A stretch of 36,664 bases of DNA from a bacterium. Lineage in GTDB: Bacteria; Hydrothermota; Tepidihabitantia; Tepidihabitantales; Tepidihabitantaceae. Below the pieces are notes generated by a model. The model was not told the origin of the DNA. It was given only the letters and a program-made list of their open reading frames with translations, and ran no database searches. This document shows positions 12,337-32,899 of this stretch, in pieces; the first letter of the stretch is position 1; the number at the start of each line of letters is the position of its first letter. The stretch is from contig JAWOIB010000015.1 in the NCBI GenBank assembly GCA_046484845.1, positions 1 through 36,664 on the forward strand. The letters run 5' to 3'. Position numbers and translations under genes: made by a program.

Positions 12337-14589
12337 TCAGCGCGCTCGCACGATCCGAACGGTATGTTGCGTGTCCGCGCTCAACCGGCAGTAGTACACC
12401 CCGGCCGGCAGGCGGCGCCCCACGTCGTCACGGCCGTCCCAGTGCAGGTCGTAGCTCCCGGCCGGCCGGACTCCGTCAGTCAACACTCGGACCTCACGGC
12501 CGGCCGCGTCGAACATCGCAACCCGCGCCGGCCCGGTGCTAGCAATGCCGTAACGGATTGCCGCTCTACCGCCTGACGGATTCGGCCCGACCAACGTAAG
12601 GCCGGTCGATACCGACTGCCGCACCGGGCCGGCCACCCCGGTTCCGGTAACCAGCACATCCTCGATCGGACCGTGGTTACTCCAGTGCCGGGTCGCGTTG
12701 TAGCCGCGCACGCGGTACCAATATCGCCCCGGCGTCCTGCCCGTGACCTGGTAGAGGGTATCGGTCACGTTGTCAGAGAGGACGCTGCGGCTGTCGAATA
12801 GCGGCACCGGGCAGACATCATCCACATACACCCCGTTACGCAGGGTGTTATCGTCGGTCATCGCCCGCAGGCGAATGTAGACCGAGCGACCGACCCAGCG
12901 TTCAAGGGGAAAGATCTTGCGTTGCCAGCCGGAGGAATTGCCGGTGTACCGGTCGTGCAGCTGGGACCACTCCAGCCCGTTCTCCGACACCTCGGCCACG
13001 AAGACATCGTAGTTGTTCTCCAAGTCATACCAGACCCAGAACGTCAGCGAGTCGCCGCTCCCGACCGGGTACGGGTCCCGGGTCACCATGTAGTTCGAGA
13101 TGTTGTTCGCGGAGCCGGAGTACAGCGAGTACGCACCGGAACGCCTCTGCGTCGTGCTCAGGCTGAACCCGCCCAGGTCCCAGAGTCCGGTCCCGGACTC
13201 GAAGTCGTCCTCGATCACCGACAGCCCGCTCAGCTCCTCGACCTCCCACTTGAGTGGTCGGTTGTACGCAGACCGGACCGGCCTCCAGTGCAGGATGAAC
13301 TCACCGGTCACGGAGCTGTCCAGCGGAGTCAGCACCGGCGGCGGGACCCTTCCCTCCAGTGCGTTGATGATCGAGTCCGCCCGGCTGAACAGGTAGAACG
13401 AGCCCTTGAAGCAGGCGGTCTGGATGGCCGGGAGCTGGCTCGTGTTCTGGTAGAAGGTCGTCCCGAGTTCGATCGTGTAGCTCATACACGGGAACCCGCC
13501 GACGTTGTGCGCCCAGCCGTACATCCAGTCCTTGGAAGACCCCGCGCTCGGGTACAGGTAATTGGCCTGCTGAGGCGTGTAGGTACCGCCCGAAAGCCGG
13601 GACATCTGCGCCGCCATACCCTGCCCCAGCGACGCGATCGTCTGATCGTAAGGCGCGACTCCGGAACTGAACGGCCAGATTACCAGTTCGCCGTAGGAGT
13701 GGAGCGTGACATCAGCCACGAACGTACGCTCCCGGAAGAACTGCTGCAAGGCATCCACGCACTCGGCCCAGTCCGAACGCGCTCCGAACCAGGTTTCGTG
13801 CCCGGGATAGTGAGTCGAACGCGAACCTCGAACCAGCGCGCCCCAGGCGTGCATCCGGGTCGTATCACAGCTACCATTGTAGTCGCGATTCGGGTCACAG
13901 CCAATCGCGCTGCCGAAGGGTTTGCGGTTGAGCCGCCACATCCGTTGCTGGGGGTAGTCGTAATCGTAACCGTCAACGTTGACGACCGGGATGATCCAGA
14001 GTTGGTGGTTGTCAACGAAATCGGTGATGGCCGGGTCACTGCCGTAGCTCGTCAGCAGGCTGTCGCCGAAATGCCGCGCCGCCTGCGGCGCCGCCCACTC
14101 GCGGGCGTGGTGCGTCGCCTCCATCAGGACTTCGGGCTCATCCTCCTCGAGATGGACATTGTCCGATATCTTGACCGCGTAAATCCAGCGGCCGAGGAAG
14201 GTCTGACCGATGGAGTCGAACCGGCAGATGGTCGGGTAGGTCGCGGCCCAGTTGCGCATTATCCGCACCAGCGAGTCGTAGTCGCAATAGTAACCGAAAC
14301 TCCAGGCATCAGCGGCCTGCGTGTCCAGGTCGTCGGTCACCACGCTCCAGGGCAGGCCGCTCGACCGCACGCGATCGAGGTCTTCACGTTCCAGCACCAG
14401 GTCGTAGCTCTCGCCCGGCACCGCGCCGGCGATGGTTACCGAACTGCCCTTGAACTCGATATGGTCGTAGAGTTCCTGGTAGTCGGCAGCCGCCACCCTC
14501 ACAAGTATGGGTCCGGCCACCGCACCGCCGACAGCAAGCAGAATCGCCGCGACCAGCGCCGGCAATCTGCCACAGCACAAGACCGTCAT
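12337..14589 (-). CDS. Secreted M14 zinc carboxypeptidase with carbohydrate-binding-like/FN3 region and FlgD-Ig CTD (paralogue A)
   Basis: HHAREW, DPNRDY, LHSY, YPSAGSSKDW, IELG; signal peptide; SD GGAGG before ATG 14589; WDGRD..GRRLPAGVYY CTD. Confidence 0.88.
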   Translation of the reverse strand: MTVLCCGRLPALVAAILLAVGGAVAGPILVRVAAADYQELYDHIEFKGSSVTIAGAVPGESYDLVLEREDLDRVRSSGLPWSVVTDDLDTQAADAWSFGYYCDYDSLVRIMRNWAATYPTICRFDSIGQTFLGRWIYAVKISDNVHLEEDEPEVLMEATHHAREWAAPQAARHFGDSLLTSYGSDPAITDFVDNHQLWIIPVVNVDGYDYDYPQQRMWRLNRKPFGSAIGCDPNRDYNGSCDTTRMHAWGALVRGSRSTHYPGHETWFGARSDWAECVDALQQFFRERTFVADVTLHSYGELVIWPFSSGVAPYDQTIASLGQGMAAQMSRLSGGTYTPQQANYLYPSAGSSKDWMYGWAHNVGGFPCMSYTIELGTTFYQNTSQLPAIQTACFKGSFYLFSRADSIINALEGRVPPPVLTPLDSSVTGEFILHWRPVRSAYNRPLKWEVEELSGLSVIEDDFESGTGLWDLGGFSLSTTQRRSGAYSLYSGSANNISNYMVTRDPYPVGSGDSLTFWVWYDLENNYDVFVAEVSENGLEWSQLHDRYTGNSSGWQRKIFPLERWVGRSVYIRLRAMTDDNTLRNGVYVDDVCPVPLFDSRSVLSDNVTDTLYQVTGRTPGRYWYRVRGYNATRHWSNHGPIEDVLVTGTGVAGPVRQSVSTGLTLVGPNPSGGRAAIRYGIASTGPARVAMFDAAGREVRVLTDGVRPAGSYDLHWDGRDDVGRRLPAGVYYCRLSADTQHTVRIVRAR

Positions 14590-14689
14590 CGTTCCTCCAT
14601 CTGCACGTCTTCCGACCACACCCACATTCGGTCTTCCGGTGTGAACCCCACACTCCTGCGTGCAAGGTCGGACCCGTCGGTCAAAGCGC

Positions 14690-14717
14690 GGCCGGGGCGG
14701 CCTCCCGCCCGCCCCGG
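14690..14717 (-). terminator. Hairpin downstream of M14 paralogue B
   Basis: GCCGGGGCGG/CCGCCCCGGC stem about 20 nt after the stop codon. Confidence 0.4.
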
Positions 14718-14736
14718 CACCAGCTTAGGCGAACGC

Positions 14737-16989
14737 TCAGTCCAACAGTACAACACGGACACTCGCCGTCTCGTCCGCATCCAGCCGGCAGAAGAAGACC
14801 CCGGTCGCCACTCTCCGGCCCGAGTCATCCCGACCGTCCCAGCGCACGGAATGGCGCCCCGGGCCGCTAATGCCTGACACGAGGGTACGCACCTTCCTGC
14901 CACTCGCGTCCATCACGACGAGGCTGGCGTTACCCGCCCTGGCCAGCGTGTAGTTGAGATCAACCGGGCCTGCCGACGGGTTGCGCCCCGCGGTCAGGCC
15001 GGTCCTGAGCCGCTCGACACCCGGTCTCTCCGCCACCCCGACCCCGGTGACGATGACTTCCTTGAGCGGGCCCTGGTTGTTCCAGCCCCAGGCCGCGTTG
15101 CGGCCCCGGCCCCGGAACCAGTAGGTTCCGACTTCAAGGTCGCTGACCTCGTACAACGTATCGGTGATGACATCGGACAACACCTGCCGCTCCGCGAATG
15201 CCGGCACCGGCCAGACATCGTCCACGTAGACCCCGGCGCCCAGCGTATTGTCGTCGGTCATATAGCGGAACCGGATGTAGACCGAACTGCCGACCCAGGG
15301 CGCGAGGGAGAAGGCACGGCGCACCCAGCCACTGGAGTTGCCGGTGTAGCGGTCGTGAAGCTGGAACCACTCCAGCCCGTCCTCGGACACCTCGGCCACC
15401 GTCACGTCGTAGTTGCTCTCGATGTTGTACCAGAGCCAGTAGCGCAGTGAGTCACCGGCTTGAACAGGGTACGGGTCGCTGGTCATCGCGTAGTTGGAGA
15501 CATTGTTGCCGGTACCCAGATATACCGAGTAGCTGCCCGAGCGCTTCTGGGTCGTCGAAAGCGAGGCGCCGCCGAGAGTCCAACGACCGGAACCGGATTC
15601 AAAGTTGTCCTCGATCACCGACAGCCCGTTGAGTTCCTCGATCTCCCAGCGTTCCGGCTCGTTGTAGTCTGGCCTGACCGGGGACCAGTGCAGAGTCACA
15701 TCGCCGGTCTCTGAAGAATCCGGCCCGAGGAGTCTGGGCGGCGGCACCCGGCCGCGCAACGCGTTCCGAATCGAATCCGCCCGCTGGAACAGGAAGTAGG
15801 CGCCCCGGAAGTTCGCGGTCTGGATGGCCGGGAGATGACTGGTGTTCTGGTAGAAGGTCGTACCCAGCTCAAACACGTAGGACATGCAGGGGAACCCGCC
15901 CGAGTAATGAGCCCAACCAAGCATCCAGTCGCATGACCCACCTGAAGTCGGGTAGAGCGTATTCGACTGACCCGGCGAGTAGGTCCCGCTGCCCAGCTTC
16001 GGCATCAAGGCCGCCATCCGCTGACCCAGACTGGCCAGCGTCGCATTGTAGGGCGCGGTCCGGCCGTCGCCGTACGGCCACAGTACCAGTTCGGAGTAGG
16101 AATGCAGCGTGATGTCGGCAACGAAGTTCCGGGTCTTGAAGAAATCGGCCAGCACGTTGACCTCGCTGGCCCACCGCCCGTGAGCGCCCATCCAGATGTC
16201 GCTGCCCGGCCGATGGTCGGAACGCGATCCGCGCACCAACGAACCCCAGTCGGCGATGGCATCGCCGTCACCCACCCCGTTGTAGCTTCGGTTCGGGTCA
16301 CTGCCGATGGACGAACCGAAAGGCTGACGGTTTCGGCGCCAAGAACGCTGGGCCGGGTAATCATAGAGGTAGCCGTCCACGTTGATTATCGGGAACACCC
16401 ACGTCTGGGTGTTGTCGATGTAGTCTCGGAAACCCTGGTTGGTCGCATAGTTGGTCAGCAGGGTGTCCACGAAATGCCTGGCCGCCTCTGGCGCCGCCCA
16501 TTCTCGAGCGTGATGCATCGACTCGAGCAGGACCTCGGGCCGGTTGTCATCGACCTGGACGTTACCACTGATCTTGACGCCATATATCCAGTTACCCTGG
16601 TGAGTCTGGCCGATGCTGTCGAGCCGGCAGATGTCCGGGTAGCTGGCGGCCCAGTTGCGCATCAACGCGACATGGTCGGCGTAGGAACGGTACTGGCCGT
16701 CCACGAACGCCTCATCTCGCCGCGTGTCGATATCATCAACGAGTACCTGCCAGCCGAGACCGCTGCCAGCGACGAGACCCATCTCGCTCCGGTCAACCAC
16801 GAGATCGTAGCTCTCACCGGGAACCGCCCCGGCGATCTCGACCGAACTGCCCTTGAACGGAATGTGGTCGTACAAATCCCAGTAGTCCCGGGCCTCGACC
16901 CGCACCATAGTCCTGCCCGCCGTGGCCACGCTCGCCGCGACGAACAACGCAAGCAGCAACGGTGCTGCTACACCGCGTTCCGGCTTCAC
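14737..16989 (-). CDS. Secreted M14 zinc carboxypeptidase, same architecture (paralogue B)
   Basis: HHAREW, DPNRSY, LHSY, YPTSGGSCDW, FELG; SD GGAGGT before GTG 16989; same length as paralogue A. Confidence 0.88.
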   Translation of the reverse strand: MKPERGVAAPLLLALFVAASVATAGRTMVRVEARDYWDLYDHIPFKGSSVEIAGAVPGESYDLVVDRSEMGLVAGSGLGWQVLVDDIDTRRDEAFVDGQYRSYADHVALMRNWAASYPDICRLDSIGQTHQGNWIYGVKISGNVQVDDNRPEVLLESMHHAREWAAPEAARHFVDTLLTNYATNQGFRDYIDNTQTWVFPIINVDGYLYDYPAQRSWRRNRQPFGSSIGSDPNRSYNGVGDGDAIADWGSLVRGSRSDHRPGSDIWMGAHGRWASEVNVLADFFKTRNFVADITLHSYSELVLWPYGDGRTAPYNATLASLGQRMAALMPKLGSGTYSPGQSNTLYPTSGGSCDWMLGWAHYSGGFPCMSYVFELGTTFYQNTSHLPAIQTANFRGAYFLFQRADSIRNALRGRVPPPRLLGPDSSETGDVTLHWSPVRPDYNEPERWEIEELNGLSVIEDNFESGSGRWTLGGASLSTTQKRSGSYSVYLGTGNNVSNYAMTSDPYPVQAGDSLRYWLWYNIESNYDVTVAEVSEDGLEWFQLHDRYTGNSSGWVRRAFSLAPWVGSSVYIRFRYMTDDNTLGAGVYVDDVWPVPAFAERQVLSDVITDTLYEVSDLEVGTYWFRGRGRNAAWGWNNQGPLKEVIVTGVGVAERPGVERLRTGLTAGRNPSAGPVDLNYTLARAGNASLVVMDASGRKVRTLVSGISGPGRHSVRWDGRDDSGRRVATGVFFCRLDADETASVRVVLLD

Positions 16990-17113
16990 TCTTACCTCCG
17001 TTTTGCGCGCCGGAGTCGGGCCCTGCGATTGCAGGGGTGAATACCGCTCACTATCCCGGCGACAGCGCAATTCGACGGTCTAAATACTCACCAGCCTCCT
17101 TACCCAGTATCTA

Positions 17114-19534: not shown

Positions 19535-19562
19535 TTGACAGCCCGGTTTCCTCGGCTATCTT
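19535..19562 (+). promoter_or_regulatory. Promoter TTGACA-N16-TATCTT of the thiolase-like/DUF35 operon
   Basis: Perfect -35 and TAnnnT -10 about 85 nt upstream of ATG 19647. Confidence 0.6.
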
Positions 19563-19646: not shown

Positions 19647-20798
19647 ATGCCTGAACGGATTGCCATCGTCGGCATCGGAGCCACGCAGTTTCGGACGATA
19701 TCGCCCGACGTCTCCTACAAGGAGCTGATGTTCGAGGCTGCGACCAAGGCCTACCGTGATGCCGGAATCGACCCGCGCAAGGACGTGGGTACTTTCATCA
19801 CCTGCGCCGAAGACTACATCGAGGGTGTCAGCATCTTCGATGAGTACGTCCCGGACCAGCTCGGCGCGATTCTCCGGCCGATGCAGACCATCACCGGCGA
19901 CGGCCTGCACGGTATCGCCGTCGCGAAGATGCTGCTCCTCACCGGGCAGTTCGACATCGCGGTGGTCGAGGCCCACGTCAAGGCCTCGAACATGCGGACC
20001 CCGGCCGGCATCGCCGCCTTCGCCCAGGACCCGGTCTTCACACGGCCGCTCGGGCTCAACACGCTCTTCGTCGCCGGGCTGGAGATGAACCGCTACTGCC
20101 AGGAGACCGGCGTGACGCTTGAGCAGTGCGGCCGGGTCGCGGTCAAGAACCGGGGCAACGCGCTTGAGAACGCGCTTGCCGCCCGGGCCGCCGAGCTGAC
20201 GCTGGCCGACCACGCCGGCAGCCGGCCGGTCGCGGCACCGCTCGCCGAGCTCGACATCGCCGAGCCGGCCGACGGCGCCATTGTCGTCGTGCTCGCCACC
20301 GAGTCCCGCGCCCGCTCGCTCAACCGCGAGCCGATCTGGCTCACCGGCATCGGCTGGTGCAACGGCTCATCGGACCTCGAAGCGCGCGACTGGGCGATGC
20401 CCGAGTACGTCGCCCGTGCCGGTGAAATGGCCTGCGCGATGTCGGGCATCAGCAACCCGCGCACCGGTTTCGACTTCGCCGAGATTGACGACACCTACAC
20501 CTACAAGGAACTGCAGCACCTGGCCGCGCTCCGTATCTGCCCGGCCGAGACGGTCGGCGAGTGGACCGCCGGCGGCGCGACCGAGGCCGACGGCGAGTTC
20601 CCGGTCAACGTCTCCGGCGGCGCACTCGGCATGGGCCACCTGCACGAGGCGATGGGCCTGGCCCGGCTCTACTGCGCAGTCGAGCAACTGCGCGGCGAAG
20701 CCGGCTCGGCCCAGCTCCCGGAAATCGAGCGCTGCCTGATCCAGTCCTGGCGCGGCATCCCGACCGCCAGCGCGGCCGCGGCGGTGCTGGAAGTCTAA
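19647..20798 (+). CDS. SCP2/archaeal-type thiolase-superfamily protein lacking the nucleophilic Cys (Ltp4-like)
   Basis: IAIVGIG, VAVKNRGNA, DGA.VVVL, EIDD.Y, VNVSGGALGMGH, QLRGEAG; the Cys loop reads QTITGDG; SD AGGAGG. Confidence 0.85.
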   Translation: MPERIAIVGIGATQFRTISPDVSYKELMFEAATKAYRDAGIDPRKDVGTFITCAEDYIEGVSIFDEYVPDQLGAILRPMQTITGDGLHGIAVAKMLLLTGQFDIAVVEAHVKASNMRTPAGIAAFAQDPVFTRPLGLNTLFVAGLEMNRYCQETGVTLEQCGRVAVKNRGNALENALAARAAELTLADHAGSRPVAAPLAELDIAEPADGAIVVVLATESRARSLNREPIWLTGIGWCNGSSDLEARDWAMPEYVARAGEMACAMSGISNPRTGFDFAEIDDTYTYKELQHLAALRICPAETVGEWTAGGATEADGEFPVNVSGGALGMGHLHEAMGLARLYCAVEQLRGEAGSAQLPEIERCLIQSWRGIPTASAAAAVLEV

Positions 20799-20807
20799 GG
20801 AGGAGAA

Positions 20808-21968
20808 ATGGGACAGAGAGTTGCAATGGTCGGCGCCGGGATGACCAAGTTCGTGCGCCGGGCCCAGGAGACCGGCAAGGAGATGAGCTACAACGCCGCC
20901 CGGATGGCGCTTGACTCCTGCGGCCTGACGCTCGACCAGGTCGAGATGGTCTGCCTCGGCACCGCGCCCGACAGCTTCGACGGCGTACACATGAAGGGCG
21001 AGTACCTCGCCGACGGCGCGGGCGCGTGGGGCAAGCCCTACATGCGCAGTTACGTCGGCGGCGGCACCGGTGTCTTCTCGGTCATCCAGGGCTGGTACCA
21101 CATCGCCTCCGGGCTCTGCGACATCGCCCTCGTCATCTGCGAGGAGAAGATGTCGTCGTTCCAGCCCCATGCCCAGGCCGCCTTCCTCACCATCTTCGAC
21201 CACATCACTGAGCGCCCGCTCAAGCCCAACCTCCTCTGGATCTTCGCGATGGAGATGAACCGCTACATGAATACCTACGGGCTCCGCAAGGAGGACATCG
21301 CCCGGGTAGCGGTCAAGAACAAGAACAACGCGCTCGACCACCCCTGCGCCCAGATTGCCAGCCCGGTCACGGTCGAGGACATCCTCGCCTCCGAGACCCT
21401 GGCCTGGCCGGTCCAGCGGCTCGACGTCAGCCCGGTCTCGGATGGGGCGGTCGCGGTCGTCCTCGCCGGCGAGAGCATCGCCCGCAAGATCACCGACAAG
21501 CCGGTCTGGATCGAGGGCGTCGGCTGGTCGCTGGATACCGCCTACTGGACCAACCGCGACCTGTGCTACCCGCGCTACGTCGAGGAAGCGGCCCGGATGG
21601 CCTATAAGATGGCCGGGGTCACCGACCCCCGTCACCAGATCCACATCGCCGAACCCTACGACCCCTTCGACTACAAGGAACTGCACCACCTCGAGGGCCT
21701 GATGCTCGCCGGCCGGGGCGAAGCCCCGCAGATGACCGTGGACGGCATCACCGCCCGCGACGGCGAACTGCCGGTCTGCCCGTCGGGCGGCCTGCTCGGC
21801 GTCGGCAACCCGATCGCCGCGGCCGGGCTGATGAAGGTCGCCGAGCTCTTCTGGCAGTTGCGCGGCGAGGCCGGCAAGCGCCAGGTCGCGCGCAAGGTCC
21901 GCCGCGGCGTCGCCCAGGCCTGGGGCGACCTGATGCAGGTCGGCACGGTCGTCGTGGTCGGAATCTAG
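20808..21968 (+). CDS. SCP2/archaeal-type thiolase-superfamily protein lacking the nucleophilic Cys (Ltp3-like)
   Basis: APDSFDGV, GKPYMRSYVGGGTG, SPVSDGAVAVVL, EPYDPF, PSGGLLGVGNPIAAAG, QLRGEAGKRQV. Confidence 0.87.
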   Translation: MGQRVAMVGAGMTKFVRRAQETGKEMSYNAARMALDSCGLTLDQVEMVCLGTAPDSFDGVHMKGEYLADGAGAWGKPYMRSYVGGGTGVFSVIQGWYHIASGLCDIALVICEEKMSSFQPHAQAAFLTIFDHITERPLKPNLLWIFAMEMNRYMNTYGLRKEDIARVAVKNKNNALDHPCAQIASPVTVEDILASETLAWPVQRLDVSPVSDGAVAVVLAGESIARKITDKPVWIEGVGWSLDTAYWTNRDLCYPRYVEEAARMAYKMAGVTDPRHQIHIAEPYDPFDYKELHHLEGLMLAGRGEAPQMTVDGITARDGELPVCPSGGLLGVGNPIAAAGLMKVAELFWQLRGEAGKRQVARKVRRGVAQAWGDLMQVGTVVVVGI

Positions 21969-21973
21969 GAGGC

Positions 21974-22528
21974 ATGATGCCAGCCAAGATGAAGAAGACG
22001 AAGAGCCGCCCGGCCGCCGCCAAGGCCGCCCCTGCCCCGCTCTACCGCGGTACCGGGCTCGCCGACAAGGACTTTGGAACCGGCAAGGTGCTCACCGAGC
22101 GCTGGACCGCGGACGCGAAGTACGCCTGGGATGCGGGCATCGCCATCAGCCGCTACCTCGAAGGCCTGAAGGAAGGCCGGCTCGTGGCGGTCCGCTGTCA
22201 CGAATGCGGCCGGACCATGATTCCGCCCCGCGCGTTCTGCGAATGGTGCTTCCGCCCGGTGGATGACTGGGTCGAGGTCAAGGACACCGGCCGGGTCAAC
22301 ACCTTCTCGCTCTGCTACGTGACCTGGGACGTCCGGCGTATCAAAGAACCCGAACTGCCCGCGGTCATCGAGATAGACGGCGCGTCGCCCGGGATGGGCA
22401 TCATGCACCACCTCGGTGAGGTCGCGCCGGACAAGATCAAGATCGGGATGCGCGTCAAGGCGGTCTGGAAGCCGGCCGCCGAGCGTGAAGGCGCAATCAC
22501 CGACATCAAGTACTGGAAGCCGTACTAG
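21974..22528 (+). CDS. DUF35 Zn-ribbon/OB-fold protein
   Basis: CHECG...PPRAFCEWC Zn ribbon, G.V.TF, IKIGMRVKAVW. Confidence 0.9.
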   Translation: MMPAKMKKTKSRPAAAKAAPAPLYRGTGLADKDFGTGKVLTERWTADAKYAWDAGIAISRYLEGLKEGRLVAVRCHECGRTMIPPRAFCEWCFRPVDDWVEVKDTGRVNTFSLCYVTWDVRRIKEPELPAVIEIDGASPGMGIMHHLGEVAPDKIKIGMRVKAVWKPAAEREGAITDIKYWKPY

Positions 22529-22538
22529 GGAGGTTGCC

Positions 22539-23021
22539 ATGGCGCTGAAACACCGAATCGAACAGCCTGAGCGGGCCCGGTCCTGGTACGGTGAGATGCC
22601 GGTTCAGCATCTCTACACCGCCGGCATCGCGGGCGAGACGTTCCTCCGCGAGCTCAAGGACAAGGGCCGCTTCATCGGCACCGCCTGCCCGGACTGCGAC
22701 GAAGTCTACGTCCCGGGCAAGGCGTTCTGCCAGAAGTGCTTCGCCCGGCTCGAAGACTGGGTGCCGGTCGGCCCCAAGGGCACGGTCGAAAGCTGGACCG
22801 TCGTCCTCGTCGGGCTCGACGGCAAGCCCCTCAAACACCCGGAAGTGGTCGGGCTCATCAACCTCGACGGCGCGACGACGAACATCGTCCACCGCCTCGG
22901 CGAGGTTGACCTCGAAGAGCTCTGCATCGGGATGCGCGTCGAACCGGTCCTCAAGCCCCGCGCCCGGCGGGCCGGCTCGGTCAACGACATCCTGCACTTC
23001 AAACCCGCGAGCCTCAAGTAG
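22539..23021 (+). CDS. Second DUF35 Zn-ribbon/OB-fold protein
   Basis: YTAGIAGETF, CPDC...FCQKC, GTVESWT, IGMRVEPV; SD GGGAGG. Confidence 0.9.
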   Translation: MALKHRIEQPERARSWYGEMPVQHLYTAGIAGETFLRELKDKGRFIGTACPDCDEVYVPGKAFCQKCFARLEDWVPVGPKGTVESWTVVLVGLDGKPLKHPEVVGLINLDGATTNIVHRLGEVDLEELCIGMRVEPVLKPRARRAGSVNDILHFKPASLK

Positions 23022-23033
23022 GCGGGTACCTTC

Positions 23034-23070
23034 GCGGCGGGGCGGCGCTGGCCGCCCCGCCGCTTGCCTT
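23034..23070 (+). terminator. Intrinsic terminator-like hairpin of the thiolase/DUF35 operon
   Basis: 13-bp stem GCGGCGGGGCGGC/GCCGCCCCGCCGC followed by TTGCCTT. Confidence 0.6.
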
Positions 23071-23092
23071 GCGCCCGACATCCGGCTATCAT
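23064..23092 (+). promoter_or_regulatory. Promoter TTGCCT-N17-TATCAT, 6 nt before ATG (leaderless)
   Basis: Hexamers read directly; no SD before ATG 23099. Confidence 0.55.
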
Positions 23093-23098
23093 CCGAAG

Positions 23099-23695
23099 AT
23101 GAAGAAGCGACCCGAGGCCCGCACCGAGGTGACCTGGTTCGCCCGGCCCGGCCGGGCCTGCACCGCCCGAACCCTGGCACTCGCCCTCGCCCGCGGCCGG
23201 GAACTGGGACTGCGCCACTACGTCGTCGCCTCGTCCACCGGCGCGACCGCGCTCAAGCTCGCGCGCCTGCTCCGGGACGGTGAACGGGCGGTCTGTGTCG
23301 GCCATCACTTCGGCTTCCGCGAGCCCGGCCGCTCCGAGCTCTCCACCGTGGCCGCACGCAGGCTCGCCGCGACCGGAATCCCGGTCCTGCGCACGACCCA
23401 CGCCCTGTCCGGCGTCGAACGCGCCAACCGGCTCAGGTTCGGCGGGCTCGGCCCGGCCGAGACCATCGCCTGGACCTACCGCACCTTCGGGGAAGGCACC
23501 AAGGTCGCGGTCGAAGTCGCAGTGATGGCGCTTGACGCCGGTCTCATCCCGCACGGCGTGGAAGTGACGGGCATCGGCGGCACCAGCTCGGGCGCGGACA
23601 CCGCCCTTGTCATTCGACCCGCCCACACACGCCTGTTCTACGACACCGTCATCAGTGAGATAATCTGCAAGCCCCGCACCCGGGGCGCCGACTAG
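23099..23695 (+). CDS. Stand-alone pyruvate kinase C-terminal (alpha/beta)-like protein, COG1751-like
   Basis: F..PG...T..TL, VVASSTGATA, HHFGF..PG, THALSGVER, FGEGTKVAVEVAVMALDAG, GGTSSGADTA, EIICKP. Confidence 0.8.
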   Translation: MKKRPEARTEVTWFARPGRACTARTLALALARGRELGLRHYVVASSTGATALKLARLLRDGERAVCVGHHFGFREPGRSELSTVAARRLAATGIPVLRTTHALSGVERANRLRFGGLGPAETIAWTYRTFGEGTKVAVEVAVMALDAGLIPHGVEVTGIGGTSSGADTALVIRPAHTRLFYDTVISEIICKPRTRGAD

Positions 23696-27610: not shown

Positions 27611-28354
27611 CTACATCAGCATTCCACCATCGACCCGGATAACCTGGCCGGTGATGTACGCAGCGGCATCTGAGCAAAGGAACAGACAGGCCTCCGCCAC
27701 GTCTCCCGGGGTGCCGAACCTGCCCAACGGGATTGTCTTCGCGTATGCCTCCCGTGTCGGCTCATCCAGCCTCTGCGTCATCGCGGTCTCGATGAACCCG
27801 GGTGCGACCGCATTGACGGTGATCGCGCGTGCGGCAAGCTCGCGGGCCGCGCTCTTGGTCAGCCCGATCATCCCAGCCTTCGCCGCCGAGTAGTTGGCCT
27901 GCCCGGCATTCCCCATCTGGCCGACAACCGAGGCAATATTGACAACCCGACCCCAACGCGCCTTCATCATCGGACGGGCGCAGGCCTTGATGAAGTTAAA
28001 CGCGCCCTTGAGATTCACCGCCAGCACCGCGTTCCAGTCCTGCTCGCTCATCCGCAGCAGCAGACCGTCGCGCGTAATACCGGCATTGTTGATGAGGATA
28101 TCCGGTCCGCCCAGCTCGGAGGTCACCCTGCCGCAGAGATCCTGGACCGCGGCCGTGTCGCTGACGTCGTTAGCATAGCCGCGCGCCACGCCGCCCGCGG
28201 CGGCTATCGCTGTCGCGCACTGCTCGGCGGCGGTCCCTACCACATCGCACACCGCCAGCCTGGCACCCGCCGCGGCCAGCCGCGATGCGATTTCCCGCCC
28301 GATACCGGCGCCGCCGCCGGTAACAATCGCCACCCTGCCATCAATCCCTTTCAT
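27611..28354 (-). CDS. fabG: 3-oxoacyl-[ACP] reductase
   Basis: TGGGAGIG, NNAGITRD, GNAGQANYSAAKAG, VAPGFIET, VDGG. Confidence 0.95.
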   Translation of the reverse strand: MKGIDGRVAIVTGGGAGIGREIASRLAAAGARLAVCDVVGTAAEQCATAIAAAGGVARGYANDVSDTAAVQDLCGRVTSELGGPDILINNAGITRDGLLLRMSEQDWNAVLAVNLKGAFNFIKACARPMMKARWGRVVNIASVVGQMGNAGQANYSAAKAGMIGLTKSAARELAARAITVNAVAPGFIETAMTQRLDEPTREAYAKTIPLGRFGTPGDVAEACLFLCSDAAAYITGQVIRVDGGMLM

Positions 28355-30824: not shown

Positions 30825-31742
30825 ATGAAGGTCGACTACGGCTTACTTTTCCCCGGGCAGGGCTCACAGTTCGTCGGCATGGGCGCGGACCTCTACGAGC
30901 GCTTCCCGGAATCGCGCGCGGTGTACGACCGTGCGGTCGAACTGCTCGAGTTCGACCTCCGCGAGGTCTCGTTCGCGGGCCCGGAAGAACGGCTGCGCCA
31001 GACCCGTTTCACCCAGCCCGCGATCCTCGTCCATTCGCTGGCGGCGCTTGCCGCGCTCCCCGGTCTTACGCCAGCCGCGGTCGCCGGCCACTCGCTGGGC
31101 GAGTACTCCGCACTCCACGCCGCCGGCGCGCTCGATTTCAAATCCGCAGTCCGGCTCGTCCGACGTCGGGCCGAGTTGATGGCCGAGGAAGGCGACCGAC
31201 AGCCGGGCACGATGGCCGCGCTGCTGGGACTCGAAGCCGCGAAGGTCGAAGAACTATGCGCCTCGGTGGATGGCGTCGTGGTCCCTGCAAACTACAACGA
31301 ACCGCTCCAGACCGTCATCTCCGGCGCGCCGGAAGCGGTGCGACGGGCTGTTGAGCTCGCTCCCGGAATGGGAGCGCGCAAGGCGGTCATGCTACCGGTG
31401 TCCGGTGCGTTCCACTCCCCGCTGCTGGCGGAATCCGCCGCCGCCTTCGCCGAGTTCCTCGCCGGGTTCGAAATCCGTGCTCCCCGCTGCCCGGTCATCG
31501 TCAACGTCTCCGGCATACCGGTGCGGACCGCGGATGAAATCCGGGACGCGCTCGCCCACCAACTCACCAGCCCGGTGCGCTGGGTCGAGACGATGAGAAG
31601 CTGCCTCGCGCTCGGCATCAACGAATTCCTCGAACCCGGGCCGGGCCGGGTACTGGCCGGGCTGGCCCGACGGGTTGACCGCTCGCTGACCGTGACCGCG
31701 GCCGGCACCGCCGACGAAATCGCCGCCCTGCGCGCGAGCTGA
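30825..31742 (+). CDS. fabD: Malonyl CoA-ACP transacylase
   Basis: FPGQGSQ, TQPA, GHSLGEY, ANYN, LPVSGAFHS, PVRW, GPGRVL. Confidence 0.95.
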   Translation: MKVDYGLLFPGQGSQFVGMGADLYERFPESRAVYDRAVELLEFDLREVSFAGPEERLRQTRFTQPAILVHSLAALAALPGLTPAAVAGHSLGEYSALHAAGALDFKSAVRLVRRRAELMAEEGDRQPGTMAALLGLEAAKVEELCASVDGVVVPANYNEPLQTVISGAPEAVRRAVELAPGMGARKAVMLPVSGAFHSPLLAESAAAFAEFLAGFEIRAPRCPVIVNVSGIPVRTADEIRDALAHQLTSPVRWVETMRSCLALGINEFLEPGPGRVLAGLARRVDRSLTVTAAGTADEIAALRAS

Positions 31743-31747
31743 GCAGG

Positions 31748-32899
31748 GTGAAGCTCAAGGCTCGGCCCGACGACTTCCGGGTCGAAGAGCGACTGAGTCT
31801 GCGGCCGGGCCGGCGCGGCCGGTACGCGGTCTACCGGCTGGAGAAGCAGTTCTGGAACACCCTCGACGTCATCCGCGAACTCGAACGCCGGCATGGCTTT
31901 CGAGGCATCGGCCGGGCCGGTCTCAAGGACCGCTACGCCCGCTCGGTCCAGTTCCTCTCCACTCGAACCGCTGGCCCGCCGACCATCCGCGAGAAGAACT
32001 GGCAGGTCACCCTCGTCGGGCGCAGTGACGAACCGGTTTCACGTGACGTCCTGCTCGGCAACCGTTTCACTGTCACGCTCCGGGCGCTGACCGAACCGGA
32101 ACTGGCGGCGGTCCGGCGGGCCTGGCCGGACGCCTGCCGCGGCGGCATTCCCAACTACTACGACGAACAGCGGCTCGGCTCTGCCCGGCACGGCGAAGGC
32201 TTCATCGCCCGGCGGCTGATTGCCGGCCATTACAACGGTGCCCTGAAGCTCTGGCTGGCGACCTCGTCCGCGACCGACGACCCCGCGACCCGGCGCCGCA
32301 AGCAGGCAATGCTTGAGCACTGGGGCGACTGGCGACGCTGTCGGTCGCTGGTCCTGCCCGAAGCCCGGGACGCGCTCGACCGGCTGGTCGCCGACCCCGA
32401 CGATCTCGAGGGAGCGGTCCGGGCCATCGACCGGCCGCTGCTCGAACTGTTCCTCAACGCCTGGCAGGCCTGGGTCTGGAACGAAACCCTGGCGCTGGTG
32501 CTCCAGCGCAGCGGGCTCAGCCTGCGCCGGCTCGAGTACCGCCTCGGCAGCTTCGCGTTCTACGACCGGCTCCAGGGCGGCCAGTTTCGCTACCTCTCGA
32601 AACTGGTCATCCCAACGCCCGGCCAGCATGCCCGGTTCGCCAGCGACCGGGTCGAACAGGCCCTGACCGAAGTTCTCGCCCGCGACGGGCTTGACCTGTC
32701 CCGGGTCAAACTGCGCTTCCGGGTCCGGGGGCTGTTCTTCAAGTCCTGGGACCGGCCCGCCATCGTCATCCCGAAGAACCCGGTGCTCTCCCGGCCCGGG
32801 CCGGACGAGCTCTACCCCGGCCGCTCCCGGCTCACCGCCGGGTTCTTCCTGCCTGCCGGCTCGTACGCCACGATGCTGGTCAAGAGGCTGCTGCTATGA
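31748..32899 (+). CDS. truD: tRNA pseudouridine(13) synthase
   Basis: PDDFRVEE, AGLKD, GNRF.VTLR, PNYY.EQR.G, F.LP.GSYAT. Confidence 0.9.
   Translation: MKLKARPDDFRVEERLSLRPGRRGRYAVYRLEKQFWNTLDVIRELERRHGFRGIGRAGLKDRYARSVQFLSTRTAGPPTIREKNWQVTLVGRSDEPVSRDVLLGNRFTVTLRALTEPELAAVRRAWPDACRGGIPNYYDEQRLGSARHGEGFIARRLIAGHYNGALKLWLATSSATDDPATRRRKQAMLEHWGDWRRCRSLVLPEARDALDRLVADPDDLEGAVRAIDRPLLELFLNAWQAWVWNETLALVLQRSGLSLRRLEYRLGSFAFYDRLQGGQFRYLSKLVIPTPGQHARFASDRVEQALTEVLARDGLDLSRVKLRFRVRGLFFKSWDRPAIVIPKNPVLSRPGPDELYPGRSRLTAGFFLPAGSYATMLVKRLLL

Follow-up and report, generated by a model that had tools for sequence, protein, structure and literature searches.

The present work deals with a module of four genes at positions 19647-23021 of a stretch of 36,664 nucleotides, contig JAWOIB010000015.1 of assembly GCA_046484845.1, which is called here the window. 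The window belongs to the genome (G000) of a WOR-3 bacterium of the family Tepidihabitantaceae (Hydrothermota), which has a size of 2.2 Mb and is 96.96% complete in 196 contigs. All four genes are on the plus strand. The first gene (19647-20798) codes for alpha, an SCP2-type thiolase-fold protein of 383 amino acids with a match to Thiolase_C_1, and the second (20808-21968) for beta, a thiolase-fold protein of 386 amino acids with matches to Thiolase_C_1 and Thiolase_N. They are followed by the genes of two proteins with a Cys4 zinc ribbon and an OB fold, DUF35A (21974-22528, 184 amino acids; zf-ChsH2 with 3.6e-8 and OB_ChsH2_C with 1.6e-12) and DUF35B (22539-23021, 160 amino acids; 6.2e-8 and 4.7e-14, respectively). 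Domains were assigned with the profile cut-offs of Pfam and NCBIfam. An earlier interpretation made from the letters of the window alone, the sequence-only reading, had proposed a four-gene operon here, and the open reading frames are found exactly where it placed them. Neither thiolase-like protein has the nucleophilic cysteine of a thiolase, and it is the altered but fixed active site of beta from which we argue below for a putative C-C lyase.

Organization and occurrence of the module

A scan of GTDB species genomes confirmed at least 591 stretches that encode a relative, and the counts of gene order, neighbours and conservation given in this work refer to the best 80 of them. When the subunit genes were read at these loci by tblastn with the four proteins of the window as queries, the order alpha-beta-DUF35A-DUF35B was found in all 70 complete loci; the other 10 end at contig edges and contain the expected parts in the same order. 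Across the 80 loci beta is 62-88% identical. The bacterial hosts are WOR-3, Anaerolineae, Chloroflexia, Dehalococcoidales, Actinomycetota, Planctomycetota, Syntrophomonadaceae and other Bacillota, and one metagenome-assembled genome (MAG) of the Deltaproteobacteria. Archaeal loci were found in Thermoplasmata and Methanomassiliicoccales, in line with the sequence-only reading, which had mentioned similar clusters in archaea. A word-indexed protein search returned 5190 proteins at E <= 0.001 among 8000 candidates scored; among the matches listed, 120 proteins are 76-92% identical to beta, and the named ones come from MAGs of WOR-3, Anaerolineae and Chloroflexi. In a library of representatives at 50% identity the orthogroup of beta is reduced to very few full-length entries, P0124 (66% identical to beta) and P0125 (59%); beyond these the identity of full-length relatives drops to 43-40%.

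Of 201 genomes sampled from the phylum, 42 have a beta above the family cut-off, and alpha adjoins it among the matches listed; within the family of the window beta reaches this level in 15 of 22 genomes (G000 included). One of the non-carriers, G099, is 96% complete in 7 contigs, and the other four sampled members of its genus carry the module. As 7 of the 22 family genomes, including G099, are without it, the module is dispensable and patchy, yet it is very strongly constrained where it is present. At least 97% conserved are 137 of the 386 positions of beta (80 sequences), 58 of 383 in alpha (71 sequences), 31 of 184 in DUF35A (71 sequences) and 13 of 160 in DUF35B (74 sequences), the least conserved subunit. 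Alignments of 31 rows give beta a mean column identity of 78%, alpha one of 65% and DUF35A one of 55%. The conserved positions of beta cluster in the active-site motifs GGGTG, EPYDPFDYK, CPSGGLLGVGNPIAA and AWGDLMQ. In one genome of the phylum sample (G156:C4:5448-6611) the beta gene matches over its full length with a single in-frame TAG.

The two DUF35 proteins are free-standing, and in both of them zf-ChsH2 and OB_ChsH2_C score above the Pfam cut-offs. The ribbon cysteines C75, C78, C89 and C92 of DUF35A are invariant in 31 sequences, and those of DUF35B are conserved in 74 sequences as well, which confirms that two separate Cys4 zinc-ribbon/OB proteins are present. The stop codons of the first three genes overlap the Shine-Dalgarno sequences of the following ones (TAAGGAGG at 20796, TAGGAGG at 21966 and TAGGGAGG at 22526); these overlaps had been noticed before and all of them are present. 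In addition, beta occurs naturally fused to two DUF35 OB stretches (P0125 with 731 amino acids, and P0138), which supports a single complex. Taken together, the fixed gene order, the stop/Shine-Dalgarno overlaps and the fusions suggest that the four genes encode one complex. In a structure prediction of the complex, alpha, beta and DUF35A together score 0.89-0.91 and both partner-replaced controls 0.00, but the beta-replaced control still scores 0.73, and we count this prediction neither for nor against the complex.

An AGGAGG lies in front of the first ATG, that of alpha. The start of DUF35A is ambiguous, with ATG at 21974, 21977 or 21989, and its initial ~25 residues are not conserved. A sigma-70-like promoter candidate (TTGACA-16 nt-TATCTT, 19535-19562, plus strand, 10 of 12 consensus matches) is situated ~85 nt upstream of the start codon of alpha; between 19300 and 23300 there are two promoter-like sites, compared with 0.3 expected from shuffled sequences. 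Directly 3′ of the DUF35B stop codon a 13-bp GC-rich hairpin without a T run is found (23034-23063, plus strand; -42.7 kcal/mol, z -2.70), and 2 of 200 shuffled sequences fold equally well. A terminator scan of the region called none on the plus strand. Of the own promoter and terminator claimed by the sequence-only reading the promoter is thus partly borne out, by a consensus match, and the terminator less so; the hairpin could possibly be the transcript end or a stabiliser. No RNA run that contains this stretch is among the 20 sequencing runs listed; those that contain it are DNA or of unknown type.

Right after the operon there is a stand-alone open reading frame similar to the C-terminal part of pyruvate kinase (23099-23695, plus strand) with its own promoter-like site at 23064-23092. 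It has no Pfam match at 1e-5, and a 58%-identical homologue in the WOR-3 locus L010 matches PK_C. We rejected this gene as a part of the module, a homologue adjoining the module in only 2 of the 80 loci (L010 and L045). In the Anaerolineae loci L014, L015, L017, L019, L021, L026, L031 and L032 small, apparently selfish genes are placed in the gaps of the operon. Judged by eye these are GxxExxY-like, PIN-toxin/antitoxin-like, nucleotidyltransferase-like and IVS-type four-helix proteins as well as one insertion sequence transposase on the opposite strand. In the Actinomycetota locus L034 a VOC-like protein is encoded between alpha and beta.

Active sites of alpha and beta

The thiolase residues were mapped by HMMER alignments to solved structures. 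In the alignment of beta with the thiolase of Pyrococcus furiosus (7yvy) the nucleophilic cysteine falls on Gly85, the HDAF motif on Y284-D-P-F and the GHP motif on G-N334-P, and both histidine positions of SCP2-type thiolases, which provide acid/base catalysis and the oxyanion hole, are lost. In alpha there is no cysteine at the nucleophile position either, where T, G, D and G are found. The corresponding motifs, RSYVGGGTG in beta and QTITGDG in alpha, are present in the translations. These results bear out what had been deduced from the letters of the window, namely the missing cysteine in both proteins, on which the alignments to solved structures and the orthologue counts agree, and YDPF and GNP in the second protein, confirmed by the comparison with 7yvy. 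The sequence-only reading had treated both proteins alike, however, and this is right for the missing cysteine but not for the remainder of the site, since a fixed active-site signature exists in beta alone.

In beta the residues G84, G85, Y284, D285, P286, F287, H293, H294 and N334 are found in 80 of 80 orthologues and C324 in 79. In alpha, by contrast, the residue equivalent to the nucleophile is Ser in 23, Thr in 16, Gly in 11, Ala in 10, Pro in 9 and Cys in 2 of 71 orthologues, and the equivalent of the GHP histidine is Asn in 26, His in 23, Tyr in 9, Asp in 6 and Ser in 5. Alpha carries DDTY (D281-D-T-Y) at the HDCF site, of which D281, opposite to Tyr284 of beta, is retained in 65 of the 71 orthologues; the histidine of its GHL motif, H331, is not conserved. 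As the positions equivalent to the active site drift in alpha and stay fixed in beta, we read alpha as non-catalytic. It is likely a structural or substrate-shaping partner of beta, and beta is likely the catalytic subunit.

For the comparison with the steroid side-chain aldolases Ltp2 and Sal the mapping is transitive and chains the alignments beta-7yvy, alpha-6ok1 and alpha-beta. Y294-D-H-F of Ltp2 (6ok1) corresponds to D281-D-T-Y of alpha and Tyr344 of Ltp2 to His331 of alpha, and in the alignment of alpha with beta D281 is paired with Y284 and H331 with N334. By this chain Tyr284 of beta is placed at the position of Tyr294 in Ltp2, of Tyr302 in Sal and of the HDCF histidine. The Sal paper shows this tyrosine to be the catalytic base (Y294DHF in Ltp2, Y302DCY in Sal), with a glycine replacing the nucleophile, and as general acid Ltp2 uses Tyr344 and Sal Cys304, of YDCY (PMC12329534). 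The acid position of Ltp2 is occupied in beta by Asn334 (80 of 80) and is variable in alpha; that of Sal is occupied by Pro286 (80 of 80) and in alpha by Thr, Arg, Lys and others.

Alpha has no conserved cysteine at all, and the sole conserved one of beta, C324 of the CPSGG motif, belongs to a different site. It stands where other family members have the asparagine of N-x-x-G-G, and it is replaced by Ser in P0124 and by Asn in P0133. With the nucleophile gone from both proteins and no cysteine available for an acyl-enzyme, an ordinary thiolase mechanism is excluded. On the other hand the invariant Tyr284 and Gly85 and the GVGNP and CPSGG loops of beta suggest a working non-covalent enolate site. 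In the monomer model of beta the only segments with a predicted local distance difference test (pLDDT) value <50 are residues 120-133 (~21165-21206) and 330-333 (~21795-21806). These loops, around P120-H121 and G333-N334, rank among the most conserved parts of beta, and perhaps they take on an ordered form only when the complex is assembled or substrate is bound.

Relation to thiolases and thiolase-fold aldolases

Beta is a member of the NCBIfam family PRK06065 (663.2 bits, cut-off 455), on which its relative P0124 reaches 600 bits. The best NCBIfam model of alpha is PRK06066 with 428.5 bits, below the cut-off of 516. Both families are named 'thiolase domain-containing protein' and have no described function. 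The sequence-only reading had called the operon Ltp4/Ltp3-like, which is appropriate for the architecture but not for the family. With the 'lipid-transfer protein' models PRK06059 and PRK07937, which going by name and length should correspond to Ltp3 and Ltp4, the scores stay far below the cut-offs (beta with PRK06059, 175.6 against 424; alpha with PRK07937, 101.2 against 419), so that neither protein is a member.

Among the solved structures 7yvy is the top match of beta (1.1e-45), compared with 3.6e-18 for Ltp2 (6ok1) and 2e-18 for Sal (9myr); the top matches of alpha are 4u4e and Ltp2 (6ok1, 1.4e-24). The AlphaFold models, with a pLDDT of 84.9 in beta and 88.7 in alpha, are confident and have the five-layered thiolase fold. 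In Foldseek searches both are similar, with template modelling (TM) scores of 0.8-0.93, to DUF35-partnered thiolase-like proteins and to SCP2-thiolases, alpha with 0.82-0.93. The solved DUF35-partnered proteins, that is the thiolase of the archaeal thiolase/HMG-CoA synthase (HMGCS) complex, BbsB, PhlC, Ltp2 and Sal, are all found among the structural matches of both models, with Ltp2 (6ok1) ranking 19th with beta and 6th with alpha, and Sal (9myr) 29th and 41st.

We calculated a tree with FastTree (106 rows, midpoint-rooted, local support only) from the two thiolase-like proteins of the window, 7 orthologues each of alpha and beta and 90 full-length representatives; representatives <360 or >430 amino acids, five fragmentary ones and the named references Ltp2/3/4, BbsB and PhlC were left out. 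Of the 15 rows that bear the cysteine, 14 fall into a canonical group (27 rows, support 98). The beta-like group has 32 rows, 28 of them with the tyrosine, and here the orthogroup of beta (support 99-100) stands beside 22 PRK08313-type proteins. This sister clade retains the same active-site signature, mostly with Asn at the position of C324. The alpha-like group of 47 rows comprises the orthogroup of alpha (support 96-97) and 29 other proteins without the cysteine; P0221, the only PRK07937 'lipid-transfer protein' representative of the tree, also falls into it.

Ltp2-ChsH2 from Thermomonospora curvata (6ok1) and Sal-Shy from Comamonas testosteroni (9myr) are retro-aldolases of steroid side chains. 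They have in common with the module the SCP2-type thiolase fold, the glycine at the nucleophile position, the tyrosine of Y-D-x-F/Y and the DUF35 partner. Ltp2 and Sal, however, form homodimers, and their single kind of DUF35 domain is fused to a hydratase, whereas the module has two different thiolase-like and two free-standing DUF35 proteins and no hydratase. In beta the general acids Tyr344 and Cys304 of those enzymes are replaced by Asn334 and Pro286, and the sequence similarity is weak. Ltp3 and Ltp4 of sterol-degrading actinobacteria, which act on C24-branched side chains, are likewise encoded by two adjacent genes for thiolase-like proteins without the cysteine, and genetic evidence from Wilbrink 2012 is cited in PMC6593523 for calling them aldol lyases. 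They belong to other NCBIfam families than the module. The module has no sterol regulon or sterol genes, and it is found in WOR-3, Chloroflexota and Thermoplasmata instead of sterol degraders. The gene order of Ltp3 and Ltp4 is presumably different, too. Thus, to judge from these features, the module is like Ltp2, Sal and Ltp3/Ltp4 in its architecture and in its putative tyrosine base, yet it is no member of those families.

The archaeal thiolase/HMGCS/DUF35 complex gives the best superposition for alpha and beta (query-normalized TM scores of 0.92-0.93) and is similarly encoded by a compact operon. In it, the DUF35 protein bridges the thiolase dimer and the thiolases retain the cysteine and carry out a Claisen condensation, unlike the module with its lack of the cysteine. 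Moreover, that complex consists of one thiolase, one DUF35 protein and an HMG-CoA synthase, whereas the module has two of each of the former and the genome no synthase. For the same reason, a KT/DUF35 core that is a true Cys-thiolase (Schmerling preprint), we rejected the reading of the module as an archaeal fatty-acid synthase. Outside steroid metabolism thiolase-like and DUF35 proteins are also combined in the benzoylsuccinyl-CoA thiolase BbsAB, in the acyltransferases PhlABC and MucABC and in IpfDE. In ibuprofen degradation IpfDE is reported to free propionyl-CoA from ring-hydroxylated ibuprofen-CoA (PMC11347016), and in PhlABC an active and an inactive protein of the thiolase superfamily are coupled (PMC2954200). 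BbsB and PhlC differ from the module in that they retain the catalytic cysteine. None of these four systems has two DUF35 proteins, and they are lineage-restricted and catabolic or secondary-metabolic, whereas the module occurs across many phyla of both prokaryotic domains. We found no paper describing the four-gene module in a full-text literature whose coverage is thin for subscription journals and does not include supplements.

Gene neighbourhood and proposed reaction

In the window the module is surrounded by housekeeping or unrelated genes, with a histidine kinase upstream and the PK_C-like protein, a HIT protein and EF-G downstream. After clustering all open reading frames of the 80 loci no neighbour gene common to them was found, which agrees with the self-contained operon of the sequence-only reading. 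An acyl-CoA dehydrogenase (ACAD) is encoded near 17 of the 80 loci, in Anaerolineae, Actinomycetota, Thermoplasmata, Bacillota and Deltaproteobacteria. The large and the B12-binding subunits of an acyl-CoA mutase are found near 15 loci and MeaB near 14, in Thermoplasmata and the Deltaproteobacteria MAG. In the latter (L085:340-10099, plus strand) one co-directional run reads HBD, TetR, ACAD, CobO, mutase large subunit, mutase B12-binding small subunit, alpha, beta, DUF35A, DUF35B and MeaB, and the module is thus inserted between the mutase's small subunit and the MeaB GTPase. A family III CoA-transferase and a crotonase are located upstream of the module in L072, and an ACAD directly upstream in L078.

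The mutases adjoining the module (L085, L067) as well as a copy on contig C27 of G000 carry K-E-Y-[IQ]-A-Q-K. The other mutase of G000 adjoins an mmdA-type carboxyltransferase and carries K-E-Y-V-A-R. We take the Arg to mark the methylmalonyl-CoA mutase (MCM) type and the Gln the isobutyryl-CoA mutase (ICM) or hydroxyisobutyryl-CoA mutase type. On contig C33 of G000 (L090:471-6088, minus strand) the MCM-type mutase and the mmdA-type carboxyltransferase are accompanied by a GxxExxY protein and a homologue of the LarA-family (nickel-pincer) 2-hydroxyacid racemase. The ICM-like mutase is present in 3 of 3 carriers of the module tested, and of the 7 family genomes without the module 6 still have an orthologue at 81-82% identity; the seventh, G126, has none.

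G000 holds just two DUF35 genes, both of them in the module. It further encodes an ordinary thiolase beside a crotonase (C10), an HBD, four ACAD matches and both mutases with MeaB and CobO. There is no match to AFOR_N (AOR) in G000, yet there are three aldehyde dehydrogenase genes, and this set does not discriminate between the readings discussed below. The sequence-only reading had seen no sterol, HMG-CoA synthase or hydratase genes nearby. In fact there are none in the window, and a profile search of the 97%-complete genome gave no match to HMG_CoA_synt_C, MaoC_dehydratas or KshA_C; of the findings by which that reading could have fallen, neither a cysteine in the site nor a sterol pathway elsewhere in the genome turned up.

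Homologues of FabG (27611-28354, minus strand) and FabD (30825-31742, plus strand) are encoded in the same window at distances of 4.6 and 7.8 kb, respectively. Among the 80 loci there are 13 with FabG within 7 kb and 8 with FabD; these are all from Anaerolineae except for one Syntrophomonadaceae locus with FabG, and neither gene is found in the annotated WOR-3 locus L010. We rejected both as functional partners and read them as probable lineage synteny, although they recur in two phyla. A gene for a TruD-family pseudouridine synthase (31748-32899, plus strand) is located directly downstream of FabD. On the other side of the module two tandem paralogues of 762 and 777 amino acids (12337-17070, minus strand) combine an M14 zinc carboxypeptidase with an InhA-like MAM and a C-terminal FlgD Ig-like domain; probably these are peptidases that a peptide-fermenting organism secretes.

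We tentatively favour the explanation that the module is a heteromeric, non-thiolytic C-C lyase or aldolase for acyl-CoA. The thiolase-shaped pair together with the DUF35 pair would then probably cut or join carbon-carbon bonds in the manner of an aldolase on a small acyl-CoA. The core would be an alpha/beta heterodimer of SCP2-type thiolase folds with probably one DUF35 protein on each protomer, and the existence of two distinct DUF35 genes could be understood if the heterodimer offers two non-equivalent docking sites. In beta Gly85 would replace the nucleophile, Tyr284 would occupy the site of the aldolase base and Asn334 that of the former GHP histidine. Tyr284 is proposed to deprotonate the 3-hydroxyl group of the acyl-CoA, whereupon the C2-C3 bond would break non-covalently and the acyl-CoA enolate would be held in the oxyanion hole of the thiolase fold and be protonated by some acid. 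This would amount to an aldol-type cleavage, or in the opposite direction formation, with an aldehyde or ketone and acetyl- or propionyl-CoA as the products. The scattered ACAD, ICM-like mutase, HBD and crotonase neighbours are a weak hint at the substrate, which we guess to be a short or branched 3-hydroxyacyl-CoA (C4-C5) from the fermentation of amino acids or short-chain fatty acids. The stoichiometry of the complex, the role of Tyr284, the type of reaction and the substrate are all deduced indirectly.

Several observations weigh against an aldolase. Beta has the known aldolase base but the general acid neither of Ltp2 nor of Sal, and as both acids are absent the mechanism of these enzymes is not simply transferable. 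Overall, by sequence and by fold, beta is nearer to the true thiolases than to the aldolases, and it resembles the aldolases in the signature of its active site alone. The module has no fused or consistently adjacent hydratase, unlike ChsH1/ChsH2-Ltp2 and Shy-Sal, and no universal neighbour gene points to its pathway. Nor does a hole in the metabolism of G000 indicate the reaction, because thiolase, crotonase, HBD and ACADs are already there, and as non-carriers keep the ICM-like mutase, this enzyme is independent of the module and provides no functional link. Finally, an identity of 62-88% across the two domains is not what a peripheral catabolic lyase usually shows and may speak for a different, more constrained role.

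Other non-covalent enolate chemistry, which we consider rather unlikely, would be a biotin-independent decarboxylation of (methyl)malonyl-CoA, an epimerisation or isomerisation at C2 or a synthetic Claisen or aldol addition, with the oxyanion holes and the Tyr/Asn pair stabilising a carbanion. Condensing enzymes in which the cysteine is replaced (KS-CLF/KSQ) act as decarboxylases, and the absence of the known aldolase acids from beta would fit here. In some lineages the neighbourhood is also one of methylmalonyl- or acyl-CoA mutase chemistry, with mutase and MeaB in 14-15 of the 80 loci, and the VOC protein between alpha and beta in L034 has the fold of methylmalonyl-CoA epimerase. However, the mutases next to the module carry the Gln that presumably denotes the isobutyryl type, whereas the Arg is found in the MCM-type copy of the genome. 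Decarboxylation, moreover, does not need an invariant tyrosine at the site of the aldolase base. Two relatives point in opposite directions, as TbSLP, which has no cysteine, decarboxylates malonyl-CoA, though very slowly, and CtSal showed no malonyl-CoA decarboxylase activity (PMC12329534).

It is quite improbable that the module is a thiolase or acyltransferase with a relocated nucleophile, for example Cys324 of the CPSGG motif. Cys324 is the only conserved cysteine of the core, with 79 of 80 beta orthologues, sequence and fold are overall closest to true thiolases, and the module would complete a beta-oxidation-like set in L085 (HBD and ACAD), L078 (ACAD) and L072 (crotonase). But the asparagine of N-x-x-G-G, the place of C324, is no known catalytic position, and here Ser is found in P0124 and Asn in P0133 and most of the sister clade; besides, both thiolase histidines are lost and the genome has a canonical thiolase beside a crotonase.

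We give similarly little credence to a complex of dead enzymes that serves as a non-catalytic acyl-CoA- or lipid-binding scaffold or as a regulator. The canonical catalytic residues are all lost in alpha and beta, the module is missing from 7 of the 22 genomes of its own family, and DUF35 proteins are scaffolds in known complexes (Schmerling preprint). The 137 highly conserved positions of beta are, however, typical of an enzyme, as they extend from bacteria to archaea and are clustered at the active site, and the replacing Tyr and Asn are invariant instead of drifting. That the module is an Ltp3/Ltp4 orthologue for sterol-like substrates, as the two thiolase-like proteins without the cysteine and the genetic assignment of Ltp3/Ltp4 as aldol lyases (PMC6593523) might suggest, is hardly conceivable in view of the PRK06059 and PRK07937 scores, of a 2.2 Mb genome without KshA_C or MaoC match and of carriers that are mostly anaerobic lineages and archaea.

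On the evidence of its sequence the module would belong with the thiolase-fold/DUF35 C-C lyases, and its interest is real but unproven. The genes of the module are publicly annotated as 'acetyl-CoA C-acetyltransferase' or 'thiolase domain-containing protein', so that a thiolase which almost certainly is none may be included when the metabolism of WOR-3, Anaerolineae, soil Actinomycetota and Thermoplasmata is reconstructed. If the module is an acyl-CoA aldolase, abundant uncultured anaerobes would gain a new C-C bond reaction in their core carbon metabolism, and biocatalysis an aldolase scaffold that is soluble and needs no cofactor. The module would then also be a natural case in which a homodimeric enzyme was divided between two paralogues, one catalytic and one not, that each have an adaptor of their own. 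Going further, and decidedly speculative, the module could be a third type of thiolase-fold aldolase with a Tyr/Asn site, a degenerate partner and an own DUF35 protein for each protomer, which reversibly splits short 3-hydroxyacyl-CoAs in a redox-neutral shunt. Its substrates would then be 3-hydroxybutyryl-, 2-methyl-3-hydroxybutyryl- or 3-hydroxyisovaleryl-CoA, giving an aldehyde or ketone and acetyl- or propionyl-CoA. If this were true, uncultured anaerobic bacteria and archaea would bypass 3-hydroxyacyl-CoA dehydrogenase and thiolase in the fermentation of amino acids and short-chain fatty acids.

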